A stretch of 32,681 nt of DNA from contig JAZKZM010000219.1 of the NCBI GenBank assembly GCA_045612685.1, forward strand, positions 1 through 32,681, given 5' to 3'. This stretch comes from Elusimicrobiaceae bacterium (lineage in GTDB: Bacteria; Elusimicrobiota; Elusimicrobia; Elusimicrobiales; Elusimicrobiaceae). Shown one piece after another: positions 7,775 through 26,974 of the stretch; position 1 is the stretch's first letter, and each line of letters opens with the position of its first letter. The position numbers and the translations under genes were made by a program. The notes beneath the pieces were generated by a model. It did not search any database. It had not been told where the DNA came from and saw only the letters and a program-made list of their open reading frames with translations.

Positions 7775-8019
7775 AGGCGGGGGGAGGTAGCACAAACGGC
7801 GCTCCTCCCGTTTTCAAAAGCATAGAAGAAAGTTTTTTTGATTTAATCGATTGCCTTTGCGGGCGGTTTAACGGGCTTTCGCCGTTTGAAATCCTTAACC
7901 GACCAACAAGAGAGGTTTACGATTTATACGCTGATTGCGTGGTACACGATCTCAAGGCAAAGCAAGGCAACAATAAGCAAGATGTTTGGGTAACAAGCGC
8001 AAACGCTACTTGGCATTAA
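7481..8019 (+). CDS. Tail assembly chaperone frameshift product (gpGT analogue), -1 slip at A_AAA_AAA 7765-7771
   Basis: The -1 frame is open from the slippery heptamer to TAA at 8017-8019. It encodes about 82 further aa and fills the otherwise ORF-less gap before the tape measure gene. Confidence 0.7.
7782..7809 (+). promoter_or_regulatory. Stem-loop 10 nt downstream of the slippery site (putative frameshift stimulator)
   Basis: GGGAGG (7782-7787) pairs with CCTCCC (7804-7809), extended by AGC/GCT with one bulged nucleotide. Confidence 0.5.
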
Positions 8020-10850: not shown

Positions 10851-11920
10851 TGATACCTTATCTAGAAATTAGAGATAAATACACGCTTAAAGCGCTTGCG
10901 CTGGTTGAGCCGCAAGAGTGCTGGTTTGAATTGAGCTATCAAGAGGTAGGCCAATGCGAAATTTATTGTAGCGCCACAAAAGCCAATTTAAGCGCTCTGC
11001 AAAAGGGGCGTTTCGTGACGATCCCAAACAAGCGCTTTATTTGGATCATAACGGCGGTGCAATACACGCTTACCGAGGGCGGCGCACGGATGATAAGCGC
11101 CAGAGGCTACGAGGCTAAATGGCTATTAAGCAAGCGGTGCATTTTAACGCCTAAAGAGCTAAACGGCACGATAACAAGCGCCGTTTACGGCCTTGTTAAT
11201 AGCGCATTAGGCACGGCGGCAACGGCCGAGCGATCTATAAAGGATCAAAACGGAATTAGCAAGTTTTTTGTATCAACAAATAAGCTGCTAATTGATATTA
11301 GCGGCACGCAAGCGCCGAGGGGCAATTTGCTGGAATTTGTAAGCGCATTGCTAACGCAATACAATTGCGGCCATATTGTTGAGCTTGCAAACAATCAGCT
11401 TATTTACCGAATTTTCACGGGTGCGGTAAAGGTTGCAAGCGTTGTTTTTGCGCAAAGCCTAGATAACTTGCTTACAAGCTCTTATTTAAGCGATGATGCC
11501 GAGAAAGCCACAAGCGCCCTAGTGGTTAGCACCGTTGAGGATGTGGAATACACCAAAGCGCACGATAGCGGCGCTACAGGCATTGACCGTGCCGAGGTTG
11601 TTTTAGAGAGCAATATTAGCACTAAATACGAGGATGCCAACGGCGCCGAAAAGGAAACAACGCCAGATAGCGACCTATATCAAGGCTGGATGCTGGAGGA
11701 GGGCAAAAAGGCGCTTGCCGAGCGCATAACGCTGGAGGAGATCGCCGCCGAGCTTGATTTGCTCAATTCACGATATGCCTTTGATGTTGATTATTTTTTA
11801 GGCGATATGGTGCGGGCGAGAGATGAATTTTTTGGCTTTACGGTAGATGCCGTAATTAGAAAGTACACCATTAAACAAGATGCCAACGGCTACGGCGAGG
11901 AGGCCGAATATGGGAGGTAA
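10847..11920 (+). CDS. Tail hub/tail-associated protein (Siphovirus Gp37-like)
   Basis: 357 aa after Dit with a Gp37-like N-terminal pattern. The start could be GTG 10847 or ATG 10850. Confidence 0.55.
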   Translation: MMIPYLEIRDKYTLKALALVEPQECWFELSYQEVGQCEIYCSATKANLSALQKGRFVTIPNKRFIWIITAVQYTLTEGGARMISARGYEAKWLLSKRCILTPKELNGTITSAVYGLVNSALGTAATAERSIKDQNGISKFFVSTNKLLIDISGTQAPRGNLLEFVSALLTQYNCGHIVELANNQLIYRIFTGAVKVASVVFAQSLDNLLTSSYLSDDAEKATSALVVSTVEDVEYTKAHDSGATGIDRAEVVLESNISTKYEDANGAEKETTPDSDLYQGWMLEEGKKALAERITLEEIAAELDLLNSRYAFDVDYFLGDMVRARDEFFGFTVDAVIRKYTIKQDANGYGEEAEYGR

Positions 11921-13601: not shown

Positions 13602-13619
13602 AATATACGGGTAATATAC
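13602..13619 (+). repeat. Pair of AATATAC(R) direct repeats 11 bp apart (putative integrase arm-type sites, one arm)
   Basis: AATATAC at 13602-13608 and 13613-13619. Confidence 0.5.
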
Positions 13620-13692
13620 AAATGCCCGTAGAAAGCCTATTTTATCGCATTCAACGGCTTTGTTCTTGAAAGCACACGGATAAACAAACAAA

Positions 13693-13731
13693 CCCCATAA
13701 AGCCTTTTATATCAAGGTTTTGTGGGGTTTT
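13693..13731. terminator. Bidirectional intrinsic terminator between the tail operon (+) and the int operon (-)
   Basis: A 14-bp stem, CCCCATAAAGCCTT / AAGGTTTTGTGGGG with 2 GU pairs, and a 7-nt loop. TTTT follows on the + strand and TTTGTTTGTTT follows on the - strand. Confidence 0.75.
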
Positions 13732-13775
13732 AATATTCTGCAAAATAGCATAAAAAAGCACGAAATAACGCTTAT

Positions 13776-13793
13776 AATATACAAGCAATATAC
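13776..13793 (+). repeat. Second pair of AATATAC(A) direct repeats 11 bp apart (putative arm-type sites, other arm)
   Basis: AATATAC at 13776-13782 and 13787-13793, in the same orientation as the first pair. Confidence 0.5.
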
Positions 13794-13797
13794 ACGG

Positions 13798-14838
13798 TTA
13801 ATAGCTAAATAGATCAATCGCTTTTATTAGATCCTCTGTATTTGTATCGGTGTAATGCTCTGTTATATCTGCATCGCTATGCCCTACAATGCGCTTGACG
13901 GTTAAACGGTCAATATTTAATCGGTGCGCCTGTGATATAAAGGTGTGCCGTGTTTCGTGCAGCGTGTGGTTTATTCCGTGCTTTTCGGCAAAAGGGTTGT
14001 ACCGATCCTTACGGAAAGTATCAGCGCCAAAGCCACGGCCTAAACTATTAACAAAGAGGCACGGTTTATTTGCGCTATAATGCTTTTGGATAATTGGCAA
14101 TATTTCTTTGCTTATCGGCACAAAACGAATGCCCGAGGGCGTTTTAGATTTTTCAATAAAAAGCAGCCTTTCGGCTATATTTACATTTTCCGTTTTTAGC
14201 TCTACTAGCTCGCTTATGCGCATTCCCGTATACAAAAGCACTAAAAGCATATCGGCTACAATGTGGCCTTGCATCGCCCATATTTGGGCGATCTCTTTTT
14301 TTGTAAATGGTATTTTATCGGTTTTCTTTTCTACTTTCGGGATCTCTATAAAATCGCTATATTTCTTGTCGCAAATATCGTGCTTTAAGGCGTATGCGTA
14401 TAATTGCGAAAAAAAGACCTTAAAAGAGGCTACATAAGAGGCCGTTTTGTTTTCATCAACAAGCGCCTGTAAATGCGCCGTTTTTATATCCTTAAACGGC
14501 AAATTATAAAGGCTTTCGCACTTGCGGTAAAGCATCGTATAGTTTTTAGCGGTTGATGTTGCTATTTTTTCGTACTTGCGTGCGCTCCATTCAGCATACA
14601 CCTCGTTAAATGTTGTTTTGTTGCTTACCCCGTAAGGGTTTTTATTATACTCAACAAGGCAAGCCAAAGCCTCGGTGCGCTTTTCAAAATAGCCTATATA
14701 TTTATATTTTTGCCTGTATTGCATTACGCCGTTTACCTCGCCCTTTTCATCATACCCAGCCGTAACACGCACGGCAAATGGCTTGCGGCGTTTCTTGCCG
14801 AGGTTAATAATTGAGCCGTAGCCGTTGGCAAATCTCAT
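13798..14838 (-). CDS. int: Tyrosine integrase with N-terminal arm-binding (AP2-like) domain
   Basis: 346 aa with catalytic signatures GMRISEL, HETRHTF and GHSD..TEHYT. Confidence 0.9.
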   Translation of the reverse strand: MRFANGYGSIINLGKKRRKPFAVRVTAGYDEKGEVNGVMQYRQKYKYIGYFEKRTEALACLVEYNKNPYGVSNKTTFNEVYAEWSARKYEKIATSTAKNYTMLYRKCESLYNLPFKDIKTAHLQALVDENKTASYVASFKVFFSQLYAYALKHDICDKKYSDFIEIPKVEKKTDKIPFTKKEIAQIWAMQGHIVADMLLVLLYTGMRISELVELKTENVNIAERLLFIEKSKTPSGIRFVPISKEILPIIQKHYSANKPCLFVNSLGRGFGADTFRKDRYNPFAEKHGINHTLHETRHTFISQAHRLNIDRLTVKRIVGHSDADITEHYTDTNTEDLIKAIDLFSY

Positions 14839-15011: not shown

Positions 15012-15338
15012 TTAATCCTCCATATCAAGATATATTTTCATAATCTCTTTATAGGCTTGCGCCTTTTCCTCGGCGCTTATTGTTTCATCGGCAAAAAGCA
15101 CTTTGGCACGGGCTACCAGATCTACGGCGGCGCTACCGCCAAAGCCGAAATACTCTAGATTAACGCCTAGCGCCTCGCTTATGGCCTCTAGCTCCTTTAT
15201 GTGCGGCGATCTGCGGCCGATCTCATAATTAGAGATAGTGGCACGCTTTACCTTTAATTTTTCGGCAAGCTGTTGCTGTGTTAAGCCTCTTGTTTTTCGT
15301 AAAATTTTAATCTTTTGGCCTATTTCCTCTTTTTCCAA
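15012..15338 (-). CDS. XRE/cI-type HTH repressor, short form without S24 peptidase domain
   Basis: Contains LRKTRGLTQQQLAEKLKVKRATISNYEIG. TTG start with SD GGAGGTG. It diverges from the early genes. Confidence 0.8.
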   Translation of the reverse strand: MEKEEIGQKIKILRKTRGLTQQQLAEKLKVKRATISNYEIGRRSPHIKELEAISEALGVNLEYFGFGGSAAVDLVARAKVLFADETISAEEKAQAYKEIMKIYLDMED

Positions 15339-15381: not shown

Positions 15382-15397
15382 GCAACGAAACGCAACA
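15382..15397 (+). repeat. Triple-pentamer motif copy 2 (GCAAC GAAAC GCAAC A) in the divergent immunity region
   Basis: Read directly. Confidence 0.9.
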
Positions 15398-15457
15398 ATT
15401 TATTTATAGGGTAACACAAAAAATTTACTTTAGGCAAGAGAGGGGCAATATGTTTTT

Positions 15458-15649
15458 ATGGCGAAAAAATTTTTTTTAGAAAGAAATATGGAAATATTAA
15501 AAAATAACCGTGAAAAAACAAAGGGCGATTTGTTGAGAATGTTTGAGCTAATAACATATTTGGCCGTAAATCAAGAGATCACGCTTGACGAGGCCGAGCA
15601 CCACGCCTATTTATTATTTAAGATGCTGGAGGAGGTGGGGGAGAGTTAA
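15458..15649 (+). CDS. Hypothetical early protein (63 aa)
   Basis: ORF diverging from the repressor gene; no recognisable HTH. Confidence 0.45.
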   Translation: MAKKFFLERNMEILKNNREKTKGDLLRMFELITYLAVNQEITLDEAEHHAYLLFKMLEEVGES

Positions 15650-15690
15650 GCCCTTGCGTTTATGAACGAATTGTAAATAGTAAAAATATT

Positions 15691-15703
15691 TCACATAATG
15701 TGA
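15691..15703. promoter_or_regulatory. Perfect 6-1-6 palindrome TCACATAATGTGA just upstream of the -35 (putative operator)
   Basis: Read directly. Confidence 0.5.
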
Positions 15704-15712
15704 AAAAAACTA

Positions 15713-15741
15713 TTGACAAAGTAAAAAAACTATGGTAAAAT
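15713..15741 (+). promoter_or_regulatory. Near-consensus sigma-A promoter: TTGACA, 17-nt spacer, TGgTAAAAT (extended -10)
   Basis: -35 at 15713-15718, TG at 15733-15734, -10 at 15736-15741. Confidence 0.7.
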
Positions 15742-15795
15742 AGTATCAAGAAACAACCGAACAGATGTTCGGTAAAATGAAAGGTAAAAAAGAAA

Positions 15796-15939
15796 ATGAA
15801 ACATTATTACAGAGTAGATGTGATCGAGGAAAAAGAAATCATAAGCGTGTTTGCAAGCGAAGATTACGAAGAGGCTTGCCGAGTGTACGATGTATGGGCG
15901 CAGACACACGCAGTAATGATGCACGAAATCAACCTTTAA
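15796..15939 (+). CDS. Small hypothetical protein (47 aa, not in track)
   Basis: MKHYYRVDVIEEKEIISVFASEDYEEACRVYDVWAQTHAVMMHEINL. It lies downstream of the promoter and is more plausible than the Arg-rich 15765-15965 track ORF. Confidence 0.45.
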   Translation: MKHYYRVDVIEEKEIISVFASEDYEEACRVYDVWAQTHAVMMHEINL

Positions 15940-15978
15940 TAAACCAGCCGAGGGCGGCGGCTTAAAACCGCCCACAAA

Positions 15979-15994
15979 GCTACACAACGCAACA
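15979..15994 (+). repeat. Triple-pentamer motif copy 3 (GCTAC ACAAC GCAAC A)
   Basis: Read directly; 24 nt upstream of ATG 16019. Confidence 0.9.
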
Positions 15995-16018
15995 TTATAA
16001 AACGAAAGGTAACAGGAA

Positions 16019-16222
16019 ATGAAAAACGGAAGAATTTACAACAACGCAATTTACGGCTTTAAGAGAGTTAACGGCGAGCTTATCGCTTGCGTTTGCAACG
16101 GTGGCAAGCCCTACGAGTTTAAGCTTACAGGCAAGAGCGTTACGGCGTGCGTAAAGGAAATGCGCAAGGCTGGCATTGTTGTTATGGATTATGCAATAGC
16201 ATCGCTCAAAACATACTTTTAA
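16019..16222 (+). CDS. Hypothetical protein (67 aa)
   Basis: ORF co-oriented with the early operon. Confidence 0.5.
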   Translation: MKNGRIYNNAIYGFKRVNGELIACVCNGGKPYEFKLTGKSVTACVKEMRKAGIVVMDYAIASLKTYF

Positions 16223-16229
16223 TCTAAAA

Positions 16230-16245
16230 GCTACACAACGCAACA
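16230..16245 (+). repeat. Triple-pentamer motif copy 4 (GCTAC ACAAC GCAAC A)
   Basis: About 20 nt (AAAGCTACACAACGCAACAT) are identical to copy 3; followed by AAAGGAGG and ATG 16265. Confidence 0.9.
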
Positions 16246-16264
16246 TAAACAAAGGAGGCAACCA

Positions 16265-16402
16265 ATGTTTAGAGTTATTAAGAGGCTTTTTAAAAAGCAA
16301 CCGCCTAAAGCGGTTGTGCATAGCAAAGGCAAGGTTTATGAGTTTTCAACGCTGGAGCAAGCTATGGCATTTGTAATGCGCAAAAAGGGGGTGAGAATTT
16401 GA
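16265..16402 (+). CDS. Small hypothetical protein (45 aa, not in track)
   Basis: Strong SD AAAGGAGG 8 nt upstream. The stop overlaps the TTG start of the next gene. Confidence 0.5.
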   Translation: MFRVIKRLFKKQPPKAVVHSKGKVYEFSTLEQAMAFVMRKKGVRI

Positions 16403-16794
16403 AAAAGGAGCTATTAAAGCTTATAGCGCTAAAGGGGCGAAAGGCCGAGGCGCTGGCCGATGCTATTATAGCGGCTGGCTGGCGCAAGCTGCCCGTTAGC
16501 GTAGGGCAAACGGTGTGGGTGCTAGAGGTATCAAACTTTAACGAAAAGCACGCTATTTGCCCTTACAAGGTGGCCGAAATCCACGAGCGAGAGGCTGGCT
16601 TTGTAACCTTTGTGGCCGATAAGCTCTATAGCGGCGGTGGGCGGTATTCTTTCACATTTGCCGAGGCTGCCGTAGGCGCTAGCGTTTTTGCAACCGAGGC
16701 CGATGCTATTAAAGCTTATCTAAAGCATTTTAGGCAATACGGCGCAATGCCAGATTATCCAATGCTTGAAAACGGAAAGGAGAAATTTAATTGA
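16399..16794 (+). CDS. Hypothetical protein (131 aa)
   Basis: ORF in the operon, TTG start. Confidence 0.55.
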   Translation: MKKELLKLIALKGRKAEALADAIIAAGWRKLPVSVGQTVWVLEVSNFNEKHAICPYKVAEIHEREAGFVTFVADKLYSGGGRYSFTFAEAAVGASVFATEADAIKAYLKHFRQYGAMPDYPMLENGKEKFN

Positions 16795-16997
16795 AAAACA
16801 AAGAGCTAATTATCCTACGCATTAACCACGATCTTACACAGCCAGAAATGGCGGCCGAGTGCGGCGTAAGCACCACAACCTACAATTTGATCGAGAACGG
16901 CAAGCGCCGAGGATCTAAAGCCTTTTGGCAAAGCTTGCAAAGCAAATTTGGCTTGGATGGTGAGCAAATGTGGAAACTGCAAAACCAAGAAATTTAA
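16791..16997 (+). CDS. Small XRE-family HTH protein (Cro-like)
   Basis: Contains LTQPEMAAECGVSTTTYNLIENGKR. Confidence 0.65.
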   Translation: MKNKELIILRINHDLTQPEMAAECGVSTTTYNLIENGKRRGSKAFWQSLQSKFGLDGEQMWKLQNQEI

Positions 16998-17038
16998 GGC
17001 TACTAACCAACAAACAAAGCAAAGCGCACGCATTTAAT

Positions 17039-17054
17039 GCGCCGCAACGCAACA
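17039..17054 (+). repeat. Triple-pentamer motif copy 5 (GCGCC GCAAC GCAAC A)
   Basis: Read directly; 22 nt upstream of the erf ATG. Confidence 0.9.
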
Positions 17055-17076
17055 AAAAACCAAAAGGAGGCACAAT

Positions 17077-17640
17077 ATGACGATCTACAAAAAATTACAA
17101 GTAATCCAAGAAAAGCTTAAAGCGCCAAAAAGCCAATGGAACAAATTCGGCGGGTACGCTTTCCGTAGCTGCGAGGATATTTTAGAGGCTGTAAAGCCGT
17201 TATGCGCCGAGGTAAAGGCGGCCGTGGTTTTAACAGATGCTATAGAGCTTATCGGCGGCCGTTATTATGTAAAGGCAACGGCAAGGCTTTACGATGCCGA
17301 TATAGAAAGCTTTGTTGAAAATGTGGCTTTTGCTCGGGAGGATGAGAGCAAAAAGGGAATGGATGGGGCGCAGCTTACAGGCGCTACCTCAAGCTATGCC
17401 CGCAAATATGCGCTTAACGGCCTATTTGCTATCGATGATACCAAAGATGGCGATAGCGGCGAAACAACCGCAGCGCCGCAAAGCTCGCTAGATCCAAAGC
17501 TACTGGCCGAGGCCGAGCGCCTTAAAATCGAGCTTGCCAATATTGCGGCGTATCTTAAAAAGCCCGTTGAGAATTTAACTAACGAGGATCTTGCAAAATG
17601 CATCGAAACTAAAAAGAAAGCGCTGGAGGGGGCAAAATGA
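17077..17640 (+). CDS. erf: ERF-family single-strand annealing recombinase
   Basis: As I recall the P22 Erf sequence, the N-terminal 130 aa align closely with it: RSCEDILEAVKPL, GGRYYVKATA, KKGMDGAQLTGATSSYARKYALNGLF. Confidence 0.85.
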   Translation: MTIYKKLQVIQEKLKAPKSQWNKFGGYAFRSCEDILEAVKPLCAEVKAAVVLTDAIELIGGRYYVKATARLYDADIESFVENVAFAREDESKKGMDGAQLTGATSSYARKYALNGLFAIDDTKDGDSGETTAAPQSSLDPKLLAEAERLKIELANIAAYLKKPVENLTNEDLAKCIETKKKALEGAK

Positions 17641-18521
17641 TTGAATTTAGAGAAGAAAGCCACGAGTATTTTTTAGATGGCAAAAAGCTTATTAGCGTTA
17701 CGCAGCTTATGCGCAAGCACGGCCTAGCGCCGAGTTATGACAGCGTGCCAAGCGAGGTGCTGGCGGCAAAGGCGGCAAGAGGCACTTTTGTGCACAAGGA
17801 AATCGAGCGATATATAAAAGATGGCGAAATAGGCTTTACCACAGAGCTTACGGAATTTATCACGCACACAAGCCTTAACGCCGTTAAGGTGCTTGCCAGC
17901 GAGCTTATGGTGTATAGCGATGTAGCGGCGGGCACGGTTGATTTGGTTTTGCTTGACGATAACGGCGAGCAGATTGTGGCAGATATTAAAACAACGGCAA
18001 CGCTGCACAAAGAGGCGGTAAGCTGGCAGCTTTCCATCTATGCGTATTTGATTTTGCAAAACACAGGAAACCTAATTGAGAGAGGGCAAGCTTACCATTT
18101 TAACGCCGAGGGCGAGCTAAAGGTGGTTGAGATCCAGTTAAAGCCGCAAGCTGAGGTAGAGAGGTTGCTAGAGTGCGAGCGAAACGGCGAAAGCTACACC
18201 CCGCAAGGCTTGGCCGTGAGCAATGCCACGCTTGCCGAGCTTGTAGAGGTTGAAAGCCTTATTAGGGAGATCGAGGAGCGCAAGAAAGCGGCCGAGGCAC
18301 AGGCGTTAGAATTGAGGGCGGCGCTTATGGCAGCAATGGAGGCCAACGGCGTTACCAGCTTTGAAAACGAAAGCTTAAAAATTACATATGTAGCAGAAAC
18401 GGAAAGAGCGAGCATTGACGGTGCAAGGCTTAAAAAAGAATTGCCCGAAATCGCCGCAGAATACACCAAGCGTAGCAAGGTAAAGGCCTCGTTGCGTATC
18501 ACGATTAAGGAGGGCAAATAA
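17637..18521 (+). CDS. PD-(D/E)XK (RecB/Cas4-like) exonuclease with C-terminal coiled coil
   Basis: Motif VDLVLLDDNGEQIVADIKT; partner position next to the recombinase. Confidence 0.65.
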   Translation: MIEFREESHEYFLDGKKLISVTQLMRKHGLAPSYDSVPSEVLAAKAARGTFVHKEIERYIKDGEIGFTTELTEFITHTSLNAVKVLASELMVYSDVAAGTVDLVLLDDNGEQIVADIKTTATLHKEAVSWQLSIYAYLILQNTGNLIERGQAYHFNAEGELKVVEIQLKPQAEVERLLECERNGESYTPQGLAVSNATLAELVEVESLIREIEERKKAAEAQALELRAALMAAMEANGVTSFENESLKITYVAETERASIDGARLKKELPEIAAEYTKRSKVKASLRITIKEGK

Positions 18522-18692
18522 ATGGCAATGGTAGAAATGGCAAGCGATACGATCACCGTTAAACAATCAAAATACGATAACTTACAGCGAGATAGCGAGC
18601 AATTGCGAATTATTAAAGCTTTCGTGCGATCCGAGGAAATCATTTGTAAAAAAGATATTGTGCAGCTTATTGATGCAATGGAGGAGCAATAA
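18522..18692 (+). CDS. Small hypothetical protein (56 aa, not in track)
   Basis: ATG directly after the upstream stop, with SD AAGGAGGG upstream. Confidence 0.45.
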   Translation: MAMVEMASDTITVKQSKYDNLQRDSEQLRIIKAFVRSEEIICKKDIVQLIDAMEEQ

Positions 18693-18693
18693 A

Positions 18694-19092
18694 ATGAACA
18701 AAGTTATTTTGAGCGGCAATTTGTGCCAAGATATTGAATTAAAGCAGAGCGCCAACGGTAAGAGCGTTGTAACCAATTGTATTGCCGTAAAGAGAGAATA
18801 CAAGAACGCTAACGGCGAATATGAGAGCGATTTTATCAATCTCGTTATTTGGGGATCACAGGCAGAATATTTAGGCCGTTACGCCAGCAAGGGCGATAGG
18901 GTGGAGCTTGTAGGGCGCTGGAGCGTGCGCAAGTACCAAGCCAACGATGGCACGCAAAGAACGGTTAACGAGTGCGTTGTGGAGAGCATCACGGTATTTA
19001 GCAAGCCAAAGGATGCGGCCAACGAGGGCGCAAAGCCGAAAGCGGCGGCAGAATTTGAGGAGGTAACAAGCGTGGGCGATCTGCCCTTTTAA
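18694..19092 (+). CDS. ssb: Single-stranded DNA-binding protein
   Basis: OB-fold pattern MNKVILSGNL...DFINLVIWG and the acidic C-terminal tail ending DLPF. ATG 18694 follows GGAGGAG. Confidence 0.9.
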   Translation: MNKVILSGNLCQDIELKQSANGKSVVTNCIAVKREYKNANGEYESDFINLVIWGSQAEYLGRYASKGDRVELVGRWSVRKYQANDGTQRTVNECVVESITVFSKPKDAANEGAKPKAAAEFEEVTSVGDLPF

Positions 19093-19104
19093 GGAGGTTT
19101 GAAA

Positions 19105-19401
19105 ATGGCACGCATAACAAAGGTGCAACCGTTAGTTTTTGAGGCGCTTAAACAGCGCCCAGAAACTAGGGCAGATGATTATTTGCTAGTTTTGGAGGTT
19201 TACAAAAACTTTATTAGCGTTGATATGAGCTTAAAAACCATTTTAGAGCACCATATAGAGCTTGGCTTGCCGAGCTTTGCAAGCATCGTAAGAATACGGC
19301 GCAAGCTGCAAAAGTGTTACCCAGATCTAACAACCGAGGCCGCAAGAGCTATGCGAAAAAAAGAAGAAAGCGAGTATAAAAATTATGCGCTCAATAATTA
19401 G
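19105..19401 (+). CDS. Hypothetical phage protein
   Basis: ATG 19105 follows AAGGAGG. Confidence 0.5.
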   Translation: MARITKVQPLVFEALKQRPETRADDYLLVLEVYKNFISVDMSLKTILEHHIELGLPSFASIVRIRRKLQKCYPDLTTEAARAMRKKEESEYKNYALNN

Positions 19402-19678
19402 CGATGAAAAGCAATGTTTAATTTGTGAAACGCCATTTAACTTACATAAGCACCACATCTTTTACGGCGCAGGGCGGCGGCAGAAAAGCGAGCAATACGG
19501 GTGCTGGTGCTATCTTTGCTCACGCCACCACAACGGCAGCAGCGCTGGCGTTCATCTTAACGCCGTTGCAGATCGGCGGCTTAAACGATTTGCGCAACGG
19601 CGCTTTGAGGCCGTTTACCCAGATTTAGACTTTTTGCAGATCTTTGGCAAAAATTATTTTACGGAGGATGAGCAATGA
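19385..19678 (+). CDS. Cys/His-rich (HNH-like zinc-binding) protein
   Basis: Contains CLIC...HKHHI...LCSRHHNGSSAGVH. Confidence 0.45.
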   Translation: MRSIISDEKQCLICETPFNLHKHHIFYGAGRRQKSEQYGCWCYLCSRHHNGSSAGVHLNAVADRRLKRFAQRRFEAVYPDLDFLQIFGKNYFTEDEQ

Positions 19679-19901
19679 CAGACGAGCAGATTATTAAGGG
19701 GTTAGAGTGCTTGGCGAGCGAAAAAGATGTGCTTTGCGCTGGGTGCGAGTATCGGCATTTTCGGGGCTACACTTGCCACAAGGCTAATGCCAAAGATGCC
19801 ATCGCCCTCATCCAACGGCAGAAAGCCGAGATTGATAAGTTAAAGGTGTTATTGCGTAATGCTGATGCATCTATGTATGCTTTACTTTATGGAGGCGAAC
19901 A

Positions 19902-19905
<4 letters not shown>
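19675..19905 (+). CDS. Hypothetical Cys-containing protein
   Basis: ORF with ATGA-type overlap. Confidence 0.45.
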
Positions 19906-20701
<796 letters not shown>

Positions 20702-20710
20702 GAGGTTGAA

Positions 20711-20902
20711 ATGGAGCATTTTATTGAGATAACAAACATTAGCGGCGAAAAAGAGTTTATTAACACTCGGTATATTGTGAGCATATCCGTTTGGGATCGT
20801 GGCTGCAATATGCCATTGATTACTCAAATATCACTTGCAAATAATAGTTTTCCAAAAACTTACGAAAGCTATGATGATATTGTTTCAAAAATTGTTTTTT
20901 AA
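20711..20902 (+). CDS. Hypothetical protein (63 aa)
   Basis: ORF with SD GGAGG. Confidence 0.45.
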   Translation: MEHFIEITNISGEKEFINTRYIVSISVWDRGCNMPLITQISLANNSFPKTYESYDDIVSKIVF

Positions 20903-20913
20903 GGGAGGCTAAA

Positions 20914-21330
20914 ATGAGAGAAATACTTTTTAGAGGCAAGGCGGCAAATAGGAAAAAGAGCGTGTGCTACCGAACGAATTATAAAAACGGCGATTGGGTT
21001 TATGGCTTATTAACGATGCACGAAAATTATGTAGGATTTGCCGAAATGACAAACACCGATGGAATTAACGGCATTGAGGTTGATCCAGAAACCATAGGGC
21101 AATACACGGGGCTTACCGATCGTAACGGCAACAAGGTTTTTGAGGGAGATATAGTAAATATTATTTATGATTGTGACGAAAAGGCGAGCGTAATAGAATT
21201 TTACAACGGCGGTTTTTGCGTGAATATAAATAATATTTTCTTTAATTTTCAAGAAAACAATGTATATGAATTTGAAAAAATCGGCAATGTATACGATAAC
21301 CCAGAGTTGTTGGAGGGCAAAAGTGAATAA
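20914..21330 (+). CDS. YopX-family protein
   Basis: Contains REILFRGK...GDWVYG...IGQYTGLTDRNGNKVFEGDIV...IGNVYDNPELL. Confidence 0.8.
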   Translation: MREILFRGKAANRKKSVCYRTNYKNGDWVYGLLTMHENYVGFAEMTNTDGINGIEVDPETIGQYTGLTDRNGNKVFEGDIVNIIYDCDEKASVIEFYNGGFCVNINNIFFNFQENNVYEFEKIGNVYDNPELLEGKSE

Positions 21331-21493
21331 TCAATACGCATTTTGCTCCATATGCGGTAGGTATGAGCGCAAAAGAAAAATGAGGCCTATTTATACGGCT
21401 GCTTCAAGCAGTATGCCGCCAAAATTGCTTTGCTATTTGTGCGATGCTTGCTTTGCCGATGCTTTAGAGCGATGCGAAATTAGCGAGCCGTAG
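21323..21493 (+). CDS. Small zinc-ribbon-like protein (56 aa)
   Basis: GTG 21323 follows GGAGGG; carries CxxC...CxxC pairs. Confidence 0.4.
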   Translation: MNNQYAFCSICGRYERKRKMRPIYTAASSSMPPKLLCYLCDACFADALERCEISEP

Positions 21494-21516
21494 GTATGTA
21501 AGCATACATACTAAAA

Positions 21517-21532
21517 GCAACGCAACGCAACA
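21517..21532 (+). repeat. Triple-pentamer motif copy 6 (GCAAC GCAAC GCAAC A)
   Basis: A perfect (GCAAC)x3; lies 28 nt upstream of the -35 at 21560. Confidence 0.9.
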
Positions 21533-21559
21533 TTTCTAAAAGAAAATACGCCAAAGTGG

Positions 21560-21587
21560 TTGACTTTTCTAAAAATTTGATTATAAT
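21560..21587 (+). promoter_or_regulatory. Near-consensus sigma-A promoter: TTGACT, 16-nt spacer, TATAAT
   Basis: -35 at 21560-21565 and -10 at 21582-21587. Confidence 0.65.
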
Positions 21588-21593
21588 AATTAG

Positions 21594-21776
21594 TGTGAGG
21601 TTAGCACACCCTATGGCGGCGCTTTCGCCCAGATGCGAAAGATAGACACGCTATAGGGCGGCGGCCTCCGTTAGTTGGTAGTATTGGCCGATGCTACTAG
21701 CGCAATTCAATATTACCAACGGCAAAGGCATTTACTGCACGAGGCGGCCACCTCTAGCGGTAAGTGCTTTTTGTTT
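21594..21776 (+). ncRNA. Structured GC-rich leader or small RNA ending in an intrinsic terminator, upstream of the replisome-organizer gene
   Basis: Hand-folded helices: 21593-21597/21605-21609; 21609-21614/21653-21658 enclosing 21622-21628/21635-21641; a 15-bp interrupted helix 21668-21686/21708-21722; then the terminator. No ORF is present. Confidence 0.45.
21728..21776 (+). terminator. Intrinsic terminator about 20 nt before the start codon at 21796
   Basis: GCATTTACTGC/GCGGTAAGTGC (11 bp, 2 GU) plus GAGG/CCTC, with a 6-nt loop, followed by TTTTTGTTT. Confidence 0.7.
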
Positions 21777-21795
21777 ATATTAGCAAGGGGGATTT

Positions 21796-22524
21796 ATGGC
21801 AACTATTAGAGTTAACAAAACCAAAGATTATACCGTGATGAGCAATCACCATTTCAAGGAAAAGGGAATGAGCCTAAAGGCAAAGGGTTTGCTTTCGCTT
21901 ATGTTGTCCTTGCCCGATAATTGGGATTATTCTATAGCTGGGCTTGCCACGCTTTCCAAAGATGGCAAGGATAGCGTTATGGGGGCATTAAATGAGCTTG
22001 AAAAGTTTGGGTATTTGATCCGCACCAAGTGCGTTGATGCTAAAGGGCGCTTTGCGGGCTACGATTACGATATATACGAAAAGCCGCACACGGAAAAGCC
22101 GAAAGAGGATGCACCGTATGCGGAAAAACCGAACACGGAAAAGCCGCCGCAATTAAATACTAATGAATTAAGCACTAAAAAATCAATTACTAATCAATCA
22201 ATAATTAAAGATATTATTGATTATTTGAACGAAAAAGCCGAAACGCAATATAGAGCAACAACGCCGAAAACAATAGAGCTAATTAGCGCTAGATTAAAAG
22301 AGGGCTTTACCATTGATGATTTTATTTTAGTAATTGATAAAAAAGTAGCAGAATGGAAAGGCACAGATTTTGAGCAATATATAAGGCCAGCAACGCTATT
22401 TGGCACTAAATTTGAGGGCTACCTAAACGCCAAGCCAAAAGCGGCGGCCAAGCCTACTAGCGGCATTATGGATGATTACAGGAGAATGCAAGAAAAAATT
22501 GATAACGGGGGGCTATTTGACTAA
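21796..22524 (+). CDS. Replisome organizer / replication initiator (N-terminal wHTH, C-terminal Phg_2220_C-like domain)
   Basis: N-terminus KDYTVMSNHHF...LKAKGLLSLMLSLPDNWDYS. C-terminus IIDYLNEKA...YRATTPKT...RLKEGFTIDDF...W. Confidence 0.75.
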   Translation: MATIRVNKTKDYTVMSNHHFKEKGMSLKAKGLLSLMLSLPDNWDYSIAGLATLSKDGKDSVMGALNELEKFGYLIRTKCVDAKGRFAGYDYDIYEKPHTEKPKEDAPYAEKPNTEKPPQLNTNELSTKKSITNQSIIKDIIDYLNEKAETQYRATTPKTIELISARLKEGFTIDDFILVIDKKVAEWKGTDFEQYIRPATLFGTKFEGYLNAKPKAAAKPTSGIMDDYRRMQEKIDNGGLFD

Positions 22525-23132
22525 TGAGGGCTTTAACCATTGAGGATGTTAACAAGTATATTACTATGATCCGCATAAACTTTGAAAACGCCTATAAATC
22601 GCATAACGATGAGGAGCGAGAAATGCTTTTACAATCGTGGTATGCTATTTTAAGAGATTACCCAAAGGAGATCTGCGATAAGGCCGTAATTAACGCCATT
22701 AAAAACGCAGAGTTTGCGCCTCGCATCGGTGCTATTGTCAAAGAAATAGAAAAGATGCTAGAGGCGTATGAAAAGACAGATGGCGAGCTTTGGGAGGAGC
22801 TTAAACGCTGCTTGCGTGAGGTTGCCAATTGCGCCTATAAGTTTAGGTTTAACTTTATAGAGGCCAACGGCAAGACGCAGGGAGAAAATGCCCGTGAACG
22901 GGTAGAGGCAATTTATAGCGCCCTATCGCCAGAGCTTAAAGAGTATGTGCGCAGCGTGCACGCACTAATCGAAATGGCACAGCTTACCGAGGAGCAGCTA
23001 GGCTACGAGCGCAACCGATTTGCCAAAACAGCGCCGCAGATCAAGCAGCGCACCCGAACACGGGCAGAGATTGGCGGCAGCTTGTCGGGGCTTATCCAAG
23101 GAATTAACGAGCGCTATTTGATCGAGGGGTAA
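22524..23132 (+). CDS. G39P-like helicase-loader protein
   Basis: The N-terminal pattern (LLQSWYAILRDYPKE...FAPRIG) resembles SPP1 G39P. TAATG overlap with the organizer gene. Confidence 0.5.
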   Translation: MRALTIEDVNKYITMIRINFENAYKSHNDEEREMLLQSWYAILRDYPKEICDKAVINAIKNAEFAPRIGAIVKEIEKMLEAYEKTDGELWEELKRCLREVANCAYKFRFNFIEANGKTQGENARERVEAIYSALSPELKEYVRSVHALIEMAQLTEEQLGYERNRFAKTAPQIKQRTRTRAEIGGSLSGLIQGINERYLIEG

Positions 23133-23144
23133 CGGAACGCAACA
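23129..23144 (+). repeat. Triple-pentamer motif copy 7 (GTAAC GGAAC GCAAC A)
   Basis: Overlaps the TAA stop at 23130-23132; 17 nt upstream of ATG 23162. Confidence 0.9.
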
Positions 23145-23161
23145 AATAAACGAGGTTTGAT

Positions 23162-23854
23162 ATGTTAGAGATCGACAATATTTATAATATGAATTGTTTA
23201 GACGGTATGCGCCTTATGCAAGCGCAAGGGCTAAAAGCCGATTGGCTAATAGCAGATCCACCATACGGCATAGGAGTTGGCTCTCTCGCTTACACAAACG
23301 GTGTAGAGAGGGTTGGAAACGCTCTTGCTAATAGGCGTGATTATTCTGCTACAGGCGAATGGGATAAAGAACGCATAAGCAAAGATATTATGGATTTAAT
23401 GTTTGATAGGAGCAAAGATCAAATAATTTTTGGTGGCAACTATTATACAGATTTTTTGCCACCTACAAAAAGCTGGGTTGTGTGGGATAAACGATCACCG
23501 ACAAAAAATGATAGAAATGATTTTGCAGATTGCGAGCTAGCGTATTGCAGCAAGGGCGTTGCAAGGGTGTTTAATTATATCTACAACGGAATGATACAAG
23601 GCGATATGAAAAACAAGGATTACCGTTTTCACCCAACGCAAAAGCCAACGCAGCTTTACGAAATGCTATTGAGTTATTACACGAAAGAGGGCGATTTAAT
23701 TTTAGATCCCTTTGCTGGTAGTCAATCACTACGCATAGCGTGCCACAAACTGCAAAGGCGGTATATAGGGTTTGAGTTAGATAAAGGCTATTATGAGCAA
23801 GGCTGCAAATGGTTTGCAGAAAGCACGGCGCAATTATCTATTTTTGATTTGTGA
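23162..23854 (+). CDS. Orphan DNA methyltransferase (beta-class N6-adenine/N4-cytosine)
   Basis: DPPYG (motif IV) lies N-terminal and DPFAGSQS (motif I) lies C-terminal. No adjacent restriction enzyme gene. Confidence 0.85.
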   Translation: MLEIDNIYNMNCLDGMRLMQAQGLKADWLIADPPYGIGVGSLAYTNGVERVGNALANRRDYSATGEWDKERISKDIMDLMFDRSKDQIIFGGNYYTDFLPPTKSWVVWDKRSPTKNDRNDFADCELAYCSKGVARVFNYIYNGMIQGDMKNKDYRFHPTQKPTQLYEMLLSYYTKEGDLILDPFAGSQSLRIACHKLQRRYIGFELDKGYYEQGCKWFAESTAQLSIFDL

Positions 23855-23866
23855 CACAACGCAACA
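23851..23866 (+). repeat. Triple-pentamer motif copy 8 (GTGAC ACAAC GCAAC A)
   Basis: Overlaps the TGA stop at 23852-23854. Confidence 0.9.
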
Positions 23867-23902
23867 AACAATTTGAAAAGTTAACGAAAAGGGGTATATA
23901 AT

Positions 23903-24097
23903 ATGACTATGCAAGATATGAGATTAGTAAGAATGCTGGCCGAAAGAATAGGCATTAAAACGGTGGGCGAGCTAGAGGAATTTAAGCGCCGCACGGGTGT
24001 AACATCTAACGATATGCTAATAAAGAGGCTGGCGCTTTATGTGGCTAGCGATACAAGCTATGCGGAGGTGATCGATTATAAACCAATTTCTGATTAA
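23903..24097 (+). CDS. Hypothetical protein (64 aa)
   Basis: ORF with SD AAAGGGG. Confidence 0.45.
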   Translation: MTMQDMRLVRMLAERIGIKTVGELEEFKRRTGVTSNDMLIKRLALYVASDTSYAEVIDYKPISD

Positions 24098-24449
24098 GCA
24101 AAAGCTACCGAGCCTTAACGATTATACGGCGGCTTGCCGTGCTAATAAGTATGTTGGCGCTAAATTTAAAGCAGAGGTTGAGGAGGTTATAGGCTGGGCT
24201 ATTAAGCAAGCTTTGGCCTCCAAAAGCCTACGCAAGCCAACGGGGGCGGTGGTTGTTTCTTTTGAATGGCACGAGAGAACAAAAAAACGAGATGCCGACA
24301 ATATCGCCAGCGCCAAAAAGTTTATTTTGGATGCGCTCGTAAAATGCGGCGTGCTGGTTGATGATAGCCGCAAATATGTGAAAGGCTTTCACGATACAAT
24401 AATTGATGATAGCGCCGACTTTGTAAGAGTTGAGCTAATAGAGGTTTGA
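24075..24449 (+). CDS. rusA: RusA-family Holliday junction resolvase, probable ATT (or ATA) start
   Basis: C-terminal RDADNIASAKKFILDALVKCGVLVDDS is RusA-like. RusA-like N-terminal sequence (KLPSLNDY...RANKYVGAKFK) runs upstream of the first TTG (24213) to an in-frame TGA at 24069-24071. GGAGG at 24064-24068 lies 6 nt before ATT 24075. Confidence 0.6.
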   Translation: MINQFLIKQKLPSLNDYTAACRANKYVGAKFKAEVEEVIGWAIKQALASKSLRKPTGAVVVSFEWHERTKKRDADNIASAKKFILDALVKCGVLVDDSRKYVKGFHDTIIDDSADFVRVELIEV

Positions 24450-24450
24450 T

Positions 24451-24466
24451 GCGCCACAACGCAACA
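24451..24466 (+). repeat. Triple-pentamer motif copy 9 (GCGCC ACAAC GCAAC A)
   Basis: Starts 1 nt after the rusA stop; followed by AAAGGAGG and ATG 24481. Confidence 0.9.
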
Positions 24467-26910: not shown

Positions 26911-26974
26911 CTTGCACGCTAAATGCAAAATAGCGTGCAAGGTGCGTGCAAGATTGGTATAAGATGCGTGCAAG
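26911..26974. repeat. Four GCGTGCAAG sites (one inverted) with starts at 26911, 26933, 26944 and 26966, spaced 22, 11 and 22 bp
   Basis: Read directly. Two copies extend to TGCGTGCAAGATT. They lie upstream of the endolysin gene, and TATACT is at 26983-26988. Confidence 0.8.

Follow-up and report, generated by a model that had tools for sequence, protein, structure and literature searches.

A strand-specific 16-nt motif in the early-gene gaps of a rumen-type temperate phage and its possible role as a repressor site

The repressor sites of Bacillus phage phi105 are confined to the immunity region, and the operators of coliphage P1 are located at promoters. The Bacillus subtilis regulator SinR has the target GTTCTYT in an inverted or tandem arrangement, and both SinR and the C repressor of phage P2 recognise half-sites in direct repeats as well as in inverted ones. 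The repressors of phi105 and of the P1/P7 coliphages bind several non-palindromic operators instead of a small number of symmetric ones, and the phi105 case makes the initial statement that the motif described below has no equivalent in Firmicutes phages too strong (PMC1934351). The stoperators of cluster A mycobacteriophages (L5 gp71) are short asymmetric sites that are repeated many times in short intergenic gaps, in one orientation with respect to transcription and with one copy at the early promoter and immunity switch (PMC1934351, PMC9283540, PMC6550527). The SAS and ESAS sequences of cluster K phages are also asymmetric, present in one orientation and associated with non-structural genes only. 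They are located just upstream of start codons and sometimes over the upstream stop codon, with an inverted repeat upstream of about half of the copies and with varying gene families, and as of 2025 SAS had no assigned function (PMC3203893, PMC12699233). The motif analysed here shares with each of these two mycobacteriophage systems the features given for it and was identified in a 32,681-nt stretch of phage DNA, referred to as the window.

Sequence, position and conservation of the motif

The 9-mer AACGCAACA occurs nine times on the + strand of the window (positions 223, 15389, 15986, 16237, 17046, 21524, 23136, 23858 and 24458) and not once on the - strand, with 0.38 copies expected and a maximum of two copies in 100 dinucleotide-preserving shuffles. 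All nine copies are outside ORFs with coding support, and the copies found inside genes carry one mismatch, such as AACGCAACC on the - strand at 4808 and 6311. The initial annotation had described this distribution by eye, including the near-misses inside genes, and the computed counts confirmed it. Of the ten gaps exceeding 25 nt in the region from 15.3 to 24.5 kb, eight hold a copy, and the remaining copy is in the terS leader.

The 9-mer extends to a 16-mer, G-Y-N-M-C-R-N-W-A-C-G-C-A-A-C-A, with A/T-rich flanks, and the alignment was confirmed as originally tabulated. A more fitting view than three tandem pentamers is a direct repeat with a 10-bp period (GYNMCR / GCAACA), whose halves are joined by a conserved AC. 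The first pentamer is degenerate (GCGCC in three copies), and the internal 10-bp self-similarity comprises G1/G11, C5/C15 and R6/A16. Positions G1, C5, A9, C10, G11, C12, A13, A14 and C15 are invariant among the window copies, and the same nine positions are near-invariant across 48 non-coding copies from ten genomes. The motif ends 12-36 nt before start codons in the window, in general agreement with the 14-36 nt first reported, and three copies overlap or abut the upstream stop (TAA at 23130, TGA at 23852 and TGA at 24447), an overlap that had been noted for some copies. Six of the nine copies have no nearby promoter and are found 4-27 nt from a Shine-Dalgarno sequence (SD). The copies and their neighbouring features are as follows.

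216-231, + strand: terS-leader copy GCGCCATAACGCAACA; ATG 244 follows after 12 nt
15012-15338, - strand: 108-aa XRE-family CI-like repressor, built from an HTH domain, a Gly-rich linker and two helices at the C-terminus
15382-15397, + strand: switch copy GCAACGAAACGCAACA; divergent region that separates the repressor from the first early gene
15411-15423, + strand: second, partial copy GTAACACAAAAAA, which follows the switch copy after 13 nt
15758-15771: Cheo box; the phage already uses host LexA
15979-15994, + strand: motif copy GCTACACAACGCAACA, preceded by hairpin 15952-15973; ATG 16019 follows after 24 nt
16230-16245, + strand: motif copy GCTACACAACGCAACA; stop 16220-16222 precedes it by 7 nt and ATG 16265 follows after 19 nt
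16791-16997, + strand: 68-aa XRE HTH protein, alternative candidate binder, always followed by hairpin and motif
17039-17054, + strand: motif copy GCGCCGCAACGCAACA; the stop of the 68-aa HTH gene precedes it by 41 nt and erf ATG 17077 follows after 22 nt
21517-21532, + strand: motif copy GCAACGCAACGCAACA; the -35 box of the replication-module promoter follows after 27 nt
21560-21587, + strand: predicted sigma-70-type promoter of the replication module, TTGACT-16-TATAAT
23129-23144, + strand: motif copy GTAACGGAACGCAACA, over stop TAA 23130-23132 and 17 nt before methyltransferase ATG 23162
23851-23866, + strand: motif copy GTGACACAACGCAACA, over stop TGA 23852-23854; promoter 23873-23902 has its -35 box 6 nt further downstream
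23873-23902, + strand: predicted promoter before ORF 23903, TTGAAA-18-TATAAT
24451-24466, + strand: motif copy GCGCCACAACGCAACA; stop TGA 24447-24449 precedes it by 1 nt and PAPS-reductase ATG 24481 follows after 14 nt

Conservation was examined in the window and nine related metagenomic phage contigs of approximately 32 kb (213 kb in total) using a matrix built from the nine window copies. The scan of the ten genomes returned 60 matches on the early-gene strand and none on the other, compared to 1.6 in shuffled sequence, and the motif was found at syntenic gaps of related phages, a comparison suggested at the outset. Two positions are anciently shared, namely the repressor/early-gene switch, which holds GTTACAAAACGCAACT or variants in all relatives possessing the repressor, and the spot upstream of the replication-module promoter. 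The clade of the window has gained extra copies in front of many early genes. The 21517 copy is kept as a unit with the replication promoter in rel1, L194, L274, L277, L278 and L280, and homology between relatives begins exactly at this motif and continues through the promoter. The 23851 copy is kept together with promoter 23873-23902 in rel1, L194, L278 and L284, and the partial copy at 15411 is kept in rel1, L277 and L281. At the site equivalent to the terS leader, relative L164 carries a decayed copy, GTGCCGTTACGCACA.

Promoter geometry and candidate binding proteins

The distance from the end of the motif to the predicted -10 box is 28-30, 38-39 or 48-49 nt depending on the promoter class, and these classes differ by steps of about 10.4 bp. 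The distances are those of helical phasing with promoters predicted by consensus, a pattern seen in only three to five independent promoter classes. The switch copy is flanked by an ATTATA box (TATAAT on the repressor strand) and by a TGnTA..T-type extended -10 box located 12-14 nt downstream, and the -35 positions of both predicted divergent promoters fall within it. If these predicted promoters hold, the switch copy is probably untranscribed on either strand.

Butyrivibrio virus Arian is the nearest cultured relative, with a TerL that is 49% identical and a repressor that is 42% identical. Its genome uses the same half-site, TGCAACA: GTAACATTGTGCAACA is followed 14-15 nt later by an inverted TGTTGC half-site, and at one locus the two make up a palindrome, TGTTGCA-ata-TGCAACA, overlying a predicted -35 box (TTGCAA-17-TATTAT). 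Of the three Arian loci, two are placed between an annotated terminator and a predicted promoter, and the distances from motif to -10 box are 38, 39 and 90 nt, again in steps of about 10.4 bp. Neither the two orientations nor such spacers would be expected of a sense-only RNA element.

The most likely binder of the motif is the 108-aa repressor encoded at 15012-15338. Sequence matches and a model indicate a SinR-like protein with an HTH, a flexible GFGGS linker and two C-terminal helices. Its HTH residues TQQ, R32, T34, S36-N37-Y38-E39-I40, RR and P45 are invariant from the window to Arian, a putative counterpart to the invariant GCAAC core. The match between repressor and site is imperfect, because relative L179 has the same recognition helix as L171 yet lacks the motif at its switch. 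Alternatively, the motif might be bound by the 68-aa HTH protein or by a factor of the host.

The reading favoured here, tentatively, is that the 16-mer is the DNA site of the SinR-like XRE repressor. At promoters it would serve as an operator, and away from them as a roadblock with orientation or an auxiliary site, in a stoperator-like manner. The motif, its strand bias, conservation and positions, the phasing with predicted promoters and the Arian palindromes are observed; that a protein binds the motif, which protein it is and what its binding does are inferred. A phage-encoded helix-turn-helix regulator would recognise the 16-mer as double-stranded DNA, with a strong half-site, GCAACA, and a weaker one, GYNMCR, one helical turn upstream; the 10-bp self-similarity is what tandem half-sites on one helix face would give. 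The switch copy, covering the -35 positions of the divergent promoters, would act as the operator, and the copies before the replication promoter and the 23873 promoter would share one helix face with respect to RNA polymerase. Those copies that are wedged in between a stop and the ribosome-binding site of the following gene would be oriented roadblocks or insulators, or alternatively auxiliary sites that raise the local repressor concentration, and either way the early operon would be silent in the lysogen. The initial suggestion of a stoperator-like operator is favoured in kind by the switch copy, the phasing, the Arian palindromes and the invariant HTH, but the small SinR/XRE-type repressor is unrelated to L5 gp71.

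Alternative readings of the motif

An unlikely alternative, though the most probable of the three considered, makes the 16-mer a C/A-rich single-stranded sequence in the polycistronic early mRNA, serving either as the target of an RNA-binding protein (from phage or host) or as an RNase cleavage site. It would then control translation initiation or transcript stability of the following gene, a role of the sort proposed for RegA targets and cluster K SAS. Every copy is on the sense strand and most are between a stop and the next SD, 4-27 nt from the latter, and the six promoterless copies sit exactly where an RNA translational signal would. Motif, SD and spacer are kept as a unit ahead of unrelated genes: the hairpin, motif and SD leader of the 15979 copy precedes different genes in L277 and L278, and the TAAT-GCGCCANAACGCAACA-SD junction of the 24451 copy precedes other genes in L277, L280, L281, L284 and L285. 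The motif region is predicted to be unpaired. At the 17039 copy the first pentamer forms the 3' arm of hairpin 17024-17042, and this hairpin and the 41-nt spacing are kept in nine relatives regardless of the following gene, with a compensatory double change in L274 (GGCAC/GTGCC) and a G-U pair, an RNA-type signal, in L194. However, the switch copy, which is the most conserved, and the class d/e copies are upstream of the predicted promoters of the genes they precede, the Arian half-site is also inverted and its repeats fall between an annotated terminator and a predicted promoter, and helical phasing with promoters is meaningless for RNA. No RNA-binding domain was found among the early proteins, the motif region had no match in Rfam, motif regions folded no better than shuffled sequence, and neither a terminator or RNA structure associated with motif copies nor an antisense partner of the motif was found. 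With only three pentamers, these null results and several copies upstream of a promoter, the TRAP/HutP/RegA-type site first proposed received no positive support.

It is improbable that the 16-mer, often with a stop and SD, is a standard junction for cassette swaps between relatives by the Erf/exonuclease/NinB system of the phage, with regulation secondary or absent. Homology blocks start or end 0-12 nt from a motif at at least six junctions (rel1/L194 blocks end at 15068 and start at 20756, and window/rel1 homology starts at 23860). Homology islands of 41-45 bp composed of motif and SD are found between unrelated genes, such as the 45-bp island that the 16230 copy shares with L194 between non-homologous genes. 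Sub-families of copies have common flanks, for example AAAGCTACAC... and TAATGCGCCA..., and one copy that is read in frame inside a replication gene in rel1, L277 and L281 resembles a junction fusion. Against this, approximately a quarter of early gene boundaries carry the motif and an estimated quarter of breakpoints are at motifs, so breakpoints are not enriched there beyond their location at gene boundaries, and 16 bases is short for homologous exchange. The switch position, the promoter phasing and the strict conservation of nine positions over deep divergence are also left unexplained. The linker or enhancer raised initially may still apply, and several breakpoints between relatives are close to motifs, though no more often than expected at gene boundaries.

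There is similarly little reason to expect a DNA site for a host factor, such as a winged-helix OmpR/PhoB-type response regulator that would tie early phage expression to a host signal: such regulators bind 10-11-bp direct repeats at or upstream of -35 boxes, the motif has a 10-bp direct-repeat anatomy (xxAACA-N4-GCAACA), the switch site occupies the -35 position of a promoter that has a -10 box alone, other promoters are in helical phase, host LexA is already used at the Cheo box and the motif persists alongside diverged regulators, but the promoterless copies adjacent to SDs are unexplained and the co-conservation of repressor HTH residues and core sequence is the simpler explanation.

Comparison with described systems

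Two window copies, when reverse-complemented, read TTGC-N6-TTGC (e.g. TGTTGCGTTTCGTTGC) like the lambda CII site, which has the same 10-bp period and an offset of about 13 nt to the -10 box. No -10 box at a fixed distance was found on the reverse strand, where the nearest -10-like hexamers are about 3-10 nt off, and a CII-dependent leftward promoter was rejected on this geometry. The cluster K SAS includes the SD within it and comes to 3-7 bp from the start codon, whereas the motif precedes the SD, at 12-36 nt from the start, and is likewise present upstream of promoters and in the immunity switch; the two sequences are unrelated. Unlike the operators of phi105, P1 and P7, most copies here are intercistronic with no promoter, and the sequences and proteins are unrelated.

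The candidate binder resembles SinR in its HTH, linker and C-terminal helical pair within about 110 aa. As for XRE repressors, a single half-site appears in varied arrangement, tandem in the clade of the window and inverted in Arian. SinR itself differs in being a host biofilm regulator without dispersed oriented copies between cistrons.

Compared to the cluster A stoperators, the L5 sequence GGTGGMTGTCAAG is unrelated to the motif, and the L5-type repressor is a monomer with two DNA-binding domains where the candidate here is a 108-aa SinR/XRE-type protein. The window site looks like two tandem half-sites, unlike the L5 stoperator, and there are 6-9 copies in the early region only versus about 25-30 genome-wide in cluster A. 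The host here is a rumen Firmicute, and binding and an elongation block are putative. If the repressor-site reading is true, this rumen-type temperate phage and its relatives would carry a type of silencing system for which the known examples come mainly from mycobacteriophages.

The window phage and its relatives

The window represents one whole contig of a mosaic, temperate siphovirus, and its genes run in this order:

Left arm: terS, terL, portal, protease, capsid and tail genes, in that order
13798-14838, - strand: integrase, followed by the gene for a 56-aa HTH_17-like protein and then by the repressor gene
15012-15338, - strand: 108-aa XRE repressor
Rightward early operon: small ORFs, 68-aa XRE HTH protein, Erf, exonuclease, SSB, NinB and YopX, continuing with a replication organiser, two methyltransferases, PAPS reductase and amidase

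Several repeats accompany these genes. AATATACA / TAATATACA repeats that look like attP integrase arm-type sites are found in the gap (13613-13794) that separates the integrase from the final tail gene, and similar TAATATACA copies are found in the same place in the related contigs L172 and L173. Three exact tandem copies of TAATTTTAGC at 150-179, approximately 40 nt upstream of the motif copy in the terS leader and not present in the related contig L164, might be bound by a late-promoter activator or act as a signal for packaging. At 26933-26974, in a 165-nt gap that precedes the amidase (endolysin) gene, GCGTGCAAG(ATT) occurs as three direct repeats. A further oligomer, CCGAGGGCG, occurs 11 times on the + strand and 0 times on the - strand of the window between 4333 and 30645, with 0-4 copies in the relatives; it was rejected as a Chi-like signal since eight of the 11 copies share one codon phase, encoding (A/T)EG(G/E), and it is regarded as a coding by-product.

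Megablast of the window against GenBank phages returned zero nucleotide matches. The closest cultured phages by protein are the Butyrivibrio viruses Arian and Bo-Finn (TerL 49% and repressor 42% identical), and hundreds of metagenomic contigs of 30-34 kb encode a TerL 75-92% or a repressor 71-90% identical to that of the window. The relatives used for the motif were retrieved via the tail protein, integrase and repressor, the last of which gave no more than two close loci in a metagenome scan. IMG/VR relatives retrieved via the replication initiator and Erf (160 loci) are distant, AT-rich and free of the motif. The exonuclease query against the genome collection gave a single, irrelevant match, and the exact sequence of Erf was absent from the record searched. 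In three related contigs (L274, L280 and L286) the repressor gene directly adjoins the tail genes, and both the integrase and the 56-aa gene are missing; within the family, these may represent prophages that do not integrate or that resemble plasmids.

Counts, strand and contexts of the motif

The motif is real, strongly non-random and conserved. The initial annotation had described its 9-mer core, AACGCAACA, as occurring nine times, only on the + strand and only in non-coding DNA, and this was borne out: the 32,681-bp window holds nine copies on the + strand and 0 on the - strand, against an expectation of 0.38 and a maximum of 2 in dinucleotide-preserving shuffles, and all nine lie outside genes.

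223, 15389, 15986, 16237, 17046, 21524, 23136, 23858 and 24458, + strand: starts of the exact matches to AACGCAACA

Of the ten gaps that exceed 25 nt in the interval from 15.3 to 24.5 kb, eight carry a copy, and the ninth copy is located 12 nt 5' of the terS start. Allowing one mismatch in the 9-mer gave 26 matches in the window versus 11.9 expected, with the surplus mostly within genes. A position matrix built from the window copies and rescanned on the window found 0 matches on the - strand and one weak additional match on the + strand, at 7957. Applied to both strands of the window and nine relatives (213 kb), the matrix matched 60 times on the early-gene strand and 0 times on the opposite strand; the control, mononucleotide shuffles, gave 1.55 matches with both strands summed. 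The relatives' copies are mostly intergenic.

The 16-nt alignment put forward in the initial annotation was reproduced by aligning the window copies. The consensus of 48 non-coding copies is AAW-G-Y-N-M-C-R-N-W-A-C-G-C-A-A-C-A-WWW, with A/T-rich flanks and near-invariant positions G1, C5, A9, C10, G11, C12, A13, A14 and C15. Its description as a triple pentamer fared less well than the alignment itself. The motif resembles itself at a 10-bp shift (G1/G11, Y2/C12, M4/A14, C5/C15, R6/A16) and is therefore better described as two half-sites separated by one helical turn, the first degenerate (GYNMCR) and the second strong (GCAACA).

Motif copies in the window and its relatives recur in six contexts:

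(a) the switch, the divergent region between the repressor gene and the first early gene (window copy 15382-15397); most close relatives have GTTACAAAACGCAACT here, and distant relatives have a variant of it
(b) after a LexA-controlled promoter and a GGGCGG...CCGCCC hairpin, with an SD next
(c) exactly 41 nt past the stop of the 68-aa HTH gene, whichever gene comes next
(d) before the replication-module promoter, with 26-27 nt to its -35 box
(e) before a TTGAAA-N18-TATAAT promoter, with 5-7 nt to the -35 box
(f) the junction TAA-T-GCGCCANAACGCAACA-N4-13-SD, before assorted genes

The motif is thus present in related phages, and the switch and replication-promoter contexts, (a) and (d), are common even to the distant relatives L171, L175, L179, L181, L173 and L170. 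The other contexts are limited to the window's clade, in which the copies multiplied. The switch motif has an ATTATA box (TATAAT on the repressor strand) on one side and a TGnTA...T or TAACAC box 12-14 nt downstream, and so lies where each of the two divergent promoters predicted here would have its -35 box; the predicted rightward one has only an extended -10 box, with the motif copy in place of a -35 box. In context (c), a GGCGCA...TGCGCC hairpin takes its 3' arm from the first pentamer. The motif itself contains no SD and ends 12-36 nt from the start codon, and in three copies the SD begins 4-8 nt past it.

Other elements are found in the same regions. A strong promoter, TTGACA-17-TGgTAAAAT, lies at 15713-15741, and just downstream of it is a perfect Firmicutes LexA (Cheo) box, CGAACAGATGTTCG, at 15758-15771 (CGAACGCGTGTTCG in the same place in the related contig rel1), so this early promoter seems to be under direct host SOS control. 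Upstream of the promoter is a perfect palindrome, TTTCACATAATGTGAAA, at 15689-15705. Related palindromes, GTTTCAYGTGAAAC / GTGAAATGTTTCAC, are located 4-14 nt downstream of motif copies in four relatives:

L164, 142-170
L181, ~3136-3149
L194 (flipped), ~11093-11106
L274

The palindrome is a second cis element of the family and may be bound by the other HTH protein or by a host factor of the Crp/Fnr or Rex type. The replication promoter is separated from the initiator gene by a G+C-rich untranslated leader of ~200 nt (21590-21795), which could be an origin or a leader RNA and has no match in Rfam; a short island within it (21724-21776) is kept in rel1 and L194.

The candidate repressor and alternative readings

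The most conserved copy, that of context (a), and those of (d) and (e) come before the predicted promoters of their downstream genes and, for that reason, cannot act in the RNA of those transcripts. The distance from the motif end to the -10 hexamer clusters in three narrow ranges, 28-30 nt for (e), 38-39 nt for L181 and L179, and 48-49 nt for (d); it is 38, 39 and 90 nt in Arian. These spacings differ by steps of ~10.4 bp, as would fit a bound protein that needs to face RNA polymerase, which is suggestive and not proof because the promoters are only predicted and form only 3-5 independent classes.

Arian (L287, MN882551.2) encodes a repressor homologue at 17239-17565, annotated as hypothetical, and has operator-like repeat loci at 17636, 19101 and 20423. 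These three early intergenic loci carry GTAACATTGTGCAACA (GTTACACAATGCAACA at the switch), and two of them have an annotated terminator on one side and a predicted promoter on the other. At two loci, 14-15 nt further on, there is a TGTTGC half-site in inverted orientation, and TGTTGCA is found ~65 nt downstream at the switch. At one locus, the palindrome TGTTGCA-ata-TGCAACA covers the predicted -35 box (TTGCAA-17-TATTAT). Judged by sequence, this is the anatomy of a classical operator, with the same half-site in both orientations within spacers predicted to be untranscribed.

The repressor matches ImmR, SinR, P2 C and Stl-type repressors in sequence. Its structural model, of moderate confidence (mean pLDDT 72), has an XRE domain of five helices joined through a GFGGS linker to a C-terminal pair of helices, and a fold search with this model did not go beyond the level of 'XRE HTH' (E >= 0.036). 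SinR and P2 C accept tandem half-sites as well as inverted ones. Conserved HTH motifs are found in both the repressor and the 68-aa XRE protein, and both proteins are encoded in nearly all motif-bearing genomes whose sampled stretch extends that far; the repressor is preferred as the candidate binder because the anchor site falls within its own control region. Overall repressor identity between the window and Arian falls to 41-42%. The residues TQQ (helix 2 start), R32, T34, S36-N37-Y38-E39-I40, R42-R43 and P45 are nevertheless invariant across the family, from the window to Arian, and these predicted DNA-reading residues would fit the invariant GCAAC core. The related contig L179 is an imperfection in this case: its recognition helix is the same as that of L171, and its switch lacks the motif. 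Two other candidate binders were rejected, the 56-aa HTH_17-like protein since L274, L280 and L286 retain the motif although they have neither this protein nor the integrase, and the 63-aa first early protein, which has no family or PDB match and is present in L168, a contig with no extra motif copies. Our favoured, though tentative, reading of the motif is that of an oriented half-operator, predicted to be bound by the phage's SinR-like XRE repressor and spread through the early operon, which would be a new variant of the stoperator idea.

A role in RNA leaders would suit the six of nine window copies that lack a nearby promoter and have an SD 4-27 nt from their end. Motif, SD and spacer persist together as an island of 41-45 bp with unrelated genes on either side, structure prediction leaves the motif region unpaired, and the hairpin of context (c), first pentamer included, is maintained by a G-U pair in L194 and by a compensatory double change (GGCAC/GTGCC) in L274. 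Such a role is nevertheless unlikely. No RNA-binding domain was found in the early proteins, and a structured RNA was rejected because Rfam 15 gave 0 matches at E <= 1 over the whole window and the folding z-scores of -1.2 to +1.0 are no better than shuffled. An antisense or sRNA partner was likewise rejected, with no complementary TGTTGCGTT at <=1 mismatch in any non-coding stretch. The TRAP/HutP-type site suggested in the initial annotation had to be abandoned as well, since such sites comprise 6-11 or doubled triplet sets by a terminator or antiterminator, and here there are three pentamers only and no intrinsic terminators on the + strand of the early gaps.

Homology between relatives often starts or stops 0-12 nt from a motif (window/rel1 at 21505 and 23860; rel1/L194, with an end at 15068 and a start at 20756; window/L194, with an end at 17058), as would be seen if the motif were primarily a recombination linker. 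In three relatives, the replication-organiser gene includes one copy midway along its reading frame, as though two genes had fused at a junction:

rel1, 21592-21607: in-frame motif (GTAACGGAACGCAACA or GATACGGAACGCAACA) and former SD
L277, 2230-2245: the same
L281, 1842-1857: the same

These copies suggest gene fusion at a former intercistronic junction. However, about one quarter of early gene boundaries carry a motif and about one quarter of breakpoints fall at motifs, which is the coincidence that gene-boundary mosaicism alone would give; a primary recombination role is improbable, and exchange at the motif is likely to be a side effect and not its purpose. It would be highly speculative to combine both functions, so that stop codon, 16-mer and SD form a standardised portable junction that is read by the regulator, placing a new gene under immunity control at once, and that offers short homology for cassette swapping by Erf, exonuclease and NinB. 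This would amount to an integrase-free, integron-like building and silencing of the early operon in Lachnospiraceae phages. That the motif is instead the site of a host factor is a slight prospect.

If the repressor does bind the motif, stoperator-like prophage silencing would exist outside actinobacteriophages. Its parts would be oriented half-operators and a repressor of the ordinary SinR/XRE type, and the Lachnospiraceae phages that use it, from rumen and gut, form a family that is abundant but has hardly been studied. Immunity groups and operators could then be recognised in metagenomic phage contigs by a simple signature in the sequence, and there would be a route from the classical palindromic operator of Arian to dispersed one-directional sites.

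Comparison with known regulatory systems

Promoter elements were rejected as an explanation of the motif. The lambda CII promoter has TTGC-N6-TTGC straddling the -35 region and a -10 box ~13 nt downstream on the same strand; for CII-type leftward promoters, the repeat is complete in two of nine copies, and minus-strand -10-like hexamers lie at a variable ~3-10 nt. Sigma-70 -35, ECF, sigma-54 and T4 MotA boxes were dismissed for the lack of a consistent -10, CGT or GC partner at a fixed distance downstream. The XRE/SinR-type operator, a half-site repeated at one helical turn or inverted near promoters, has its counterparts in the pairs G1/G11, C5/C15 and R6/A16 and in the Arian palindrome TGTTGCA-N3-TGCAACA.

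In appearance, the motif is very like the start-associated sequences (SAS/ESAS) of cluster K phages, sharing with them a single orientation, a restriction to non-structural genes and a position before unrelated gene families. The cluster K element is a 13-bp GGGATAGGAGCCC-type sequence with the SD inside it and only 3-7 bp between it and the start codon (PMC3203893), whereas the motif has no SD, keeps its longer distance of 12-36 nt and also occurs at promoters. The function of the cluster K sequences is still unknown (PMC3203893, PMC12699233), and the motif offers a second, unrelated system for asking what repeats of this type do.

Repressors that bind multiple asymmetric operators are known from P1/P7 and from the Firmicutes phage phi105 (PMC1934351). 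The paper on Arian and Bo-Finn annotates no repressor, assigns no function to the repeats and calls the phages virulent (PMC7372960), from which the system appears to be undescribed for this phage group; a literature search on the 9-mer returned unrelated papers only. Like Arian, however, Bo-Finn encodes a homologue of the repressor, annotated as hypothetical, and three operator-like repeat loci. If the present reading is true, both phages may carry a repressor/operator module.

Cluster A stoperators are asymmetric, numerous and intergenic, lie in one orientation and also serve as the operator (PMC1934351, PMC9283540, PMC6550527). The motif shares with them an asymmetric site in many copies far above chance (9 versus 0.38 in the window, 60 versus 1.6 in shuffles) and a location in short gaps in one orientation relative to transcription (nine of nine window copies non-coding and on the + strand). 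In copy number, placement and orientation, the stoperator-like system proposed in the initial annotation is supported. An L5 gp71-type monomeric immunity repressor is not, the candidate here being the 108-aa XRE/SinR-like protein, with no gp71-like protein among the scanned switch and early-region proteins. Because its sequence and repressor type are unrelated, the motif is not a member of the stoperator family, and by analogy of behaviour the stoperators appear to be the closest known system.
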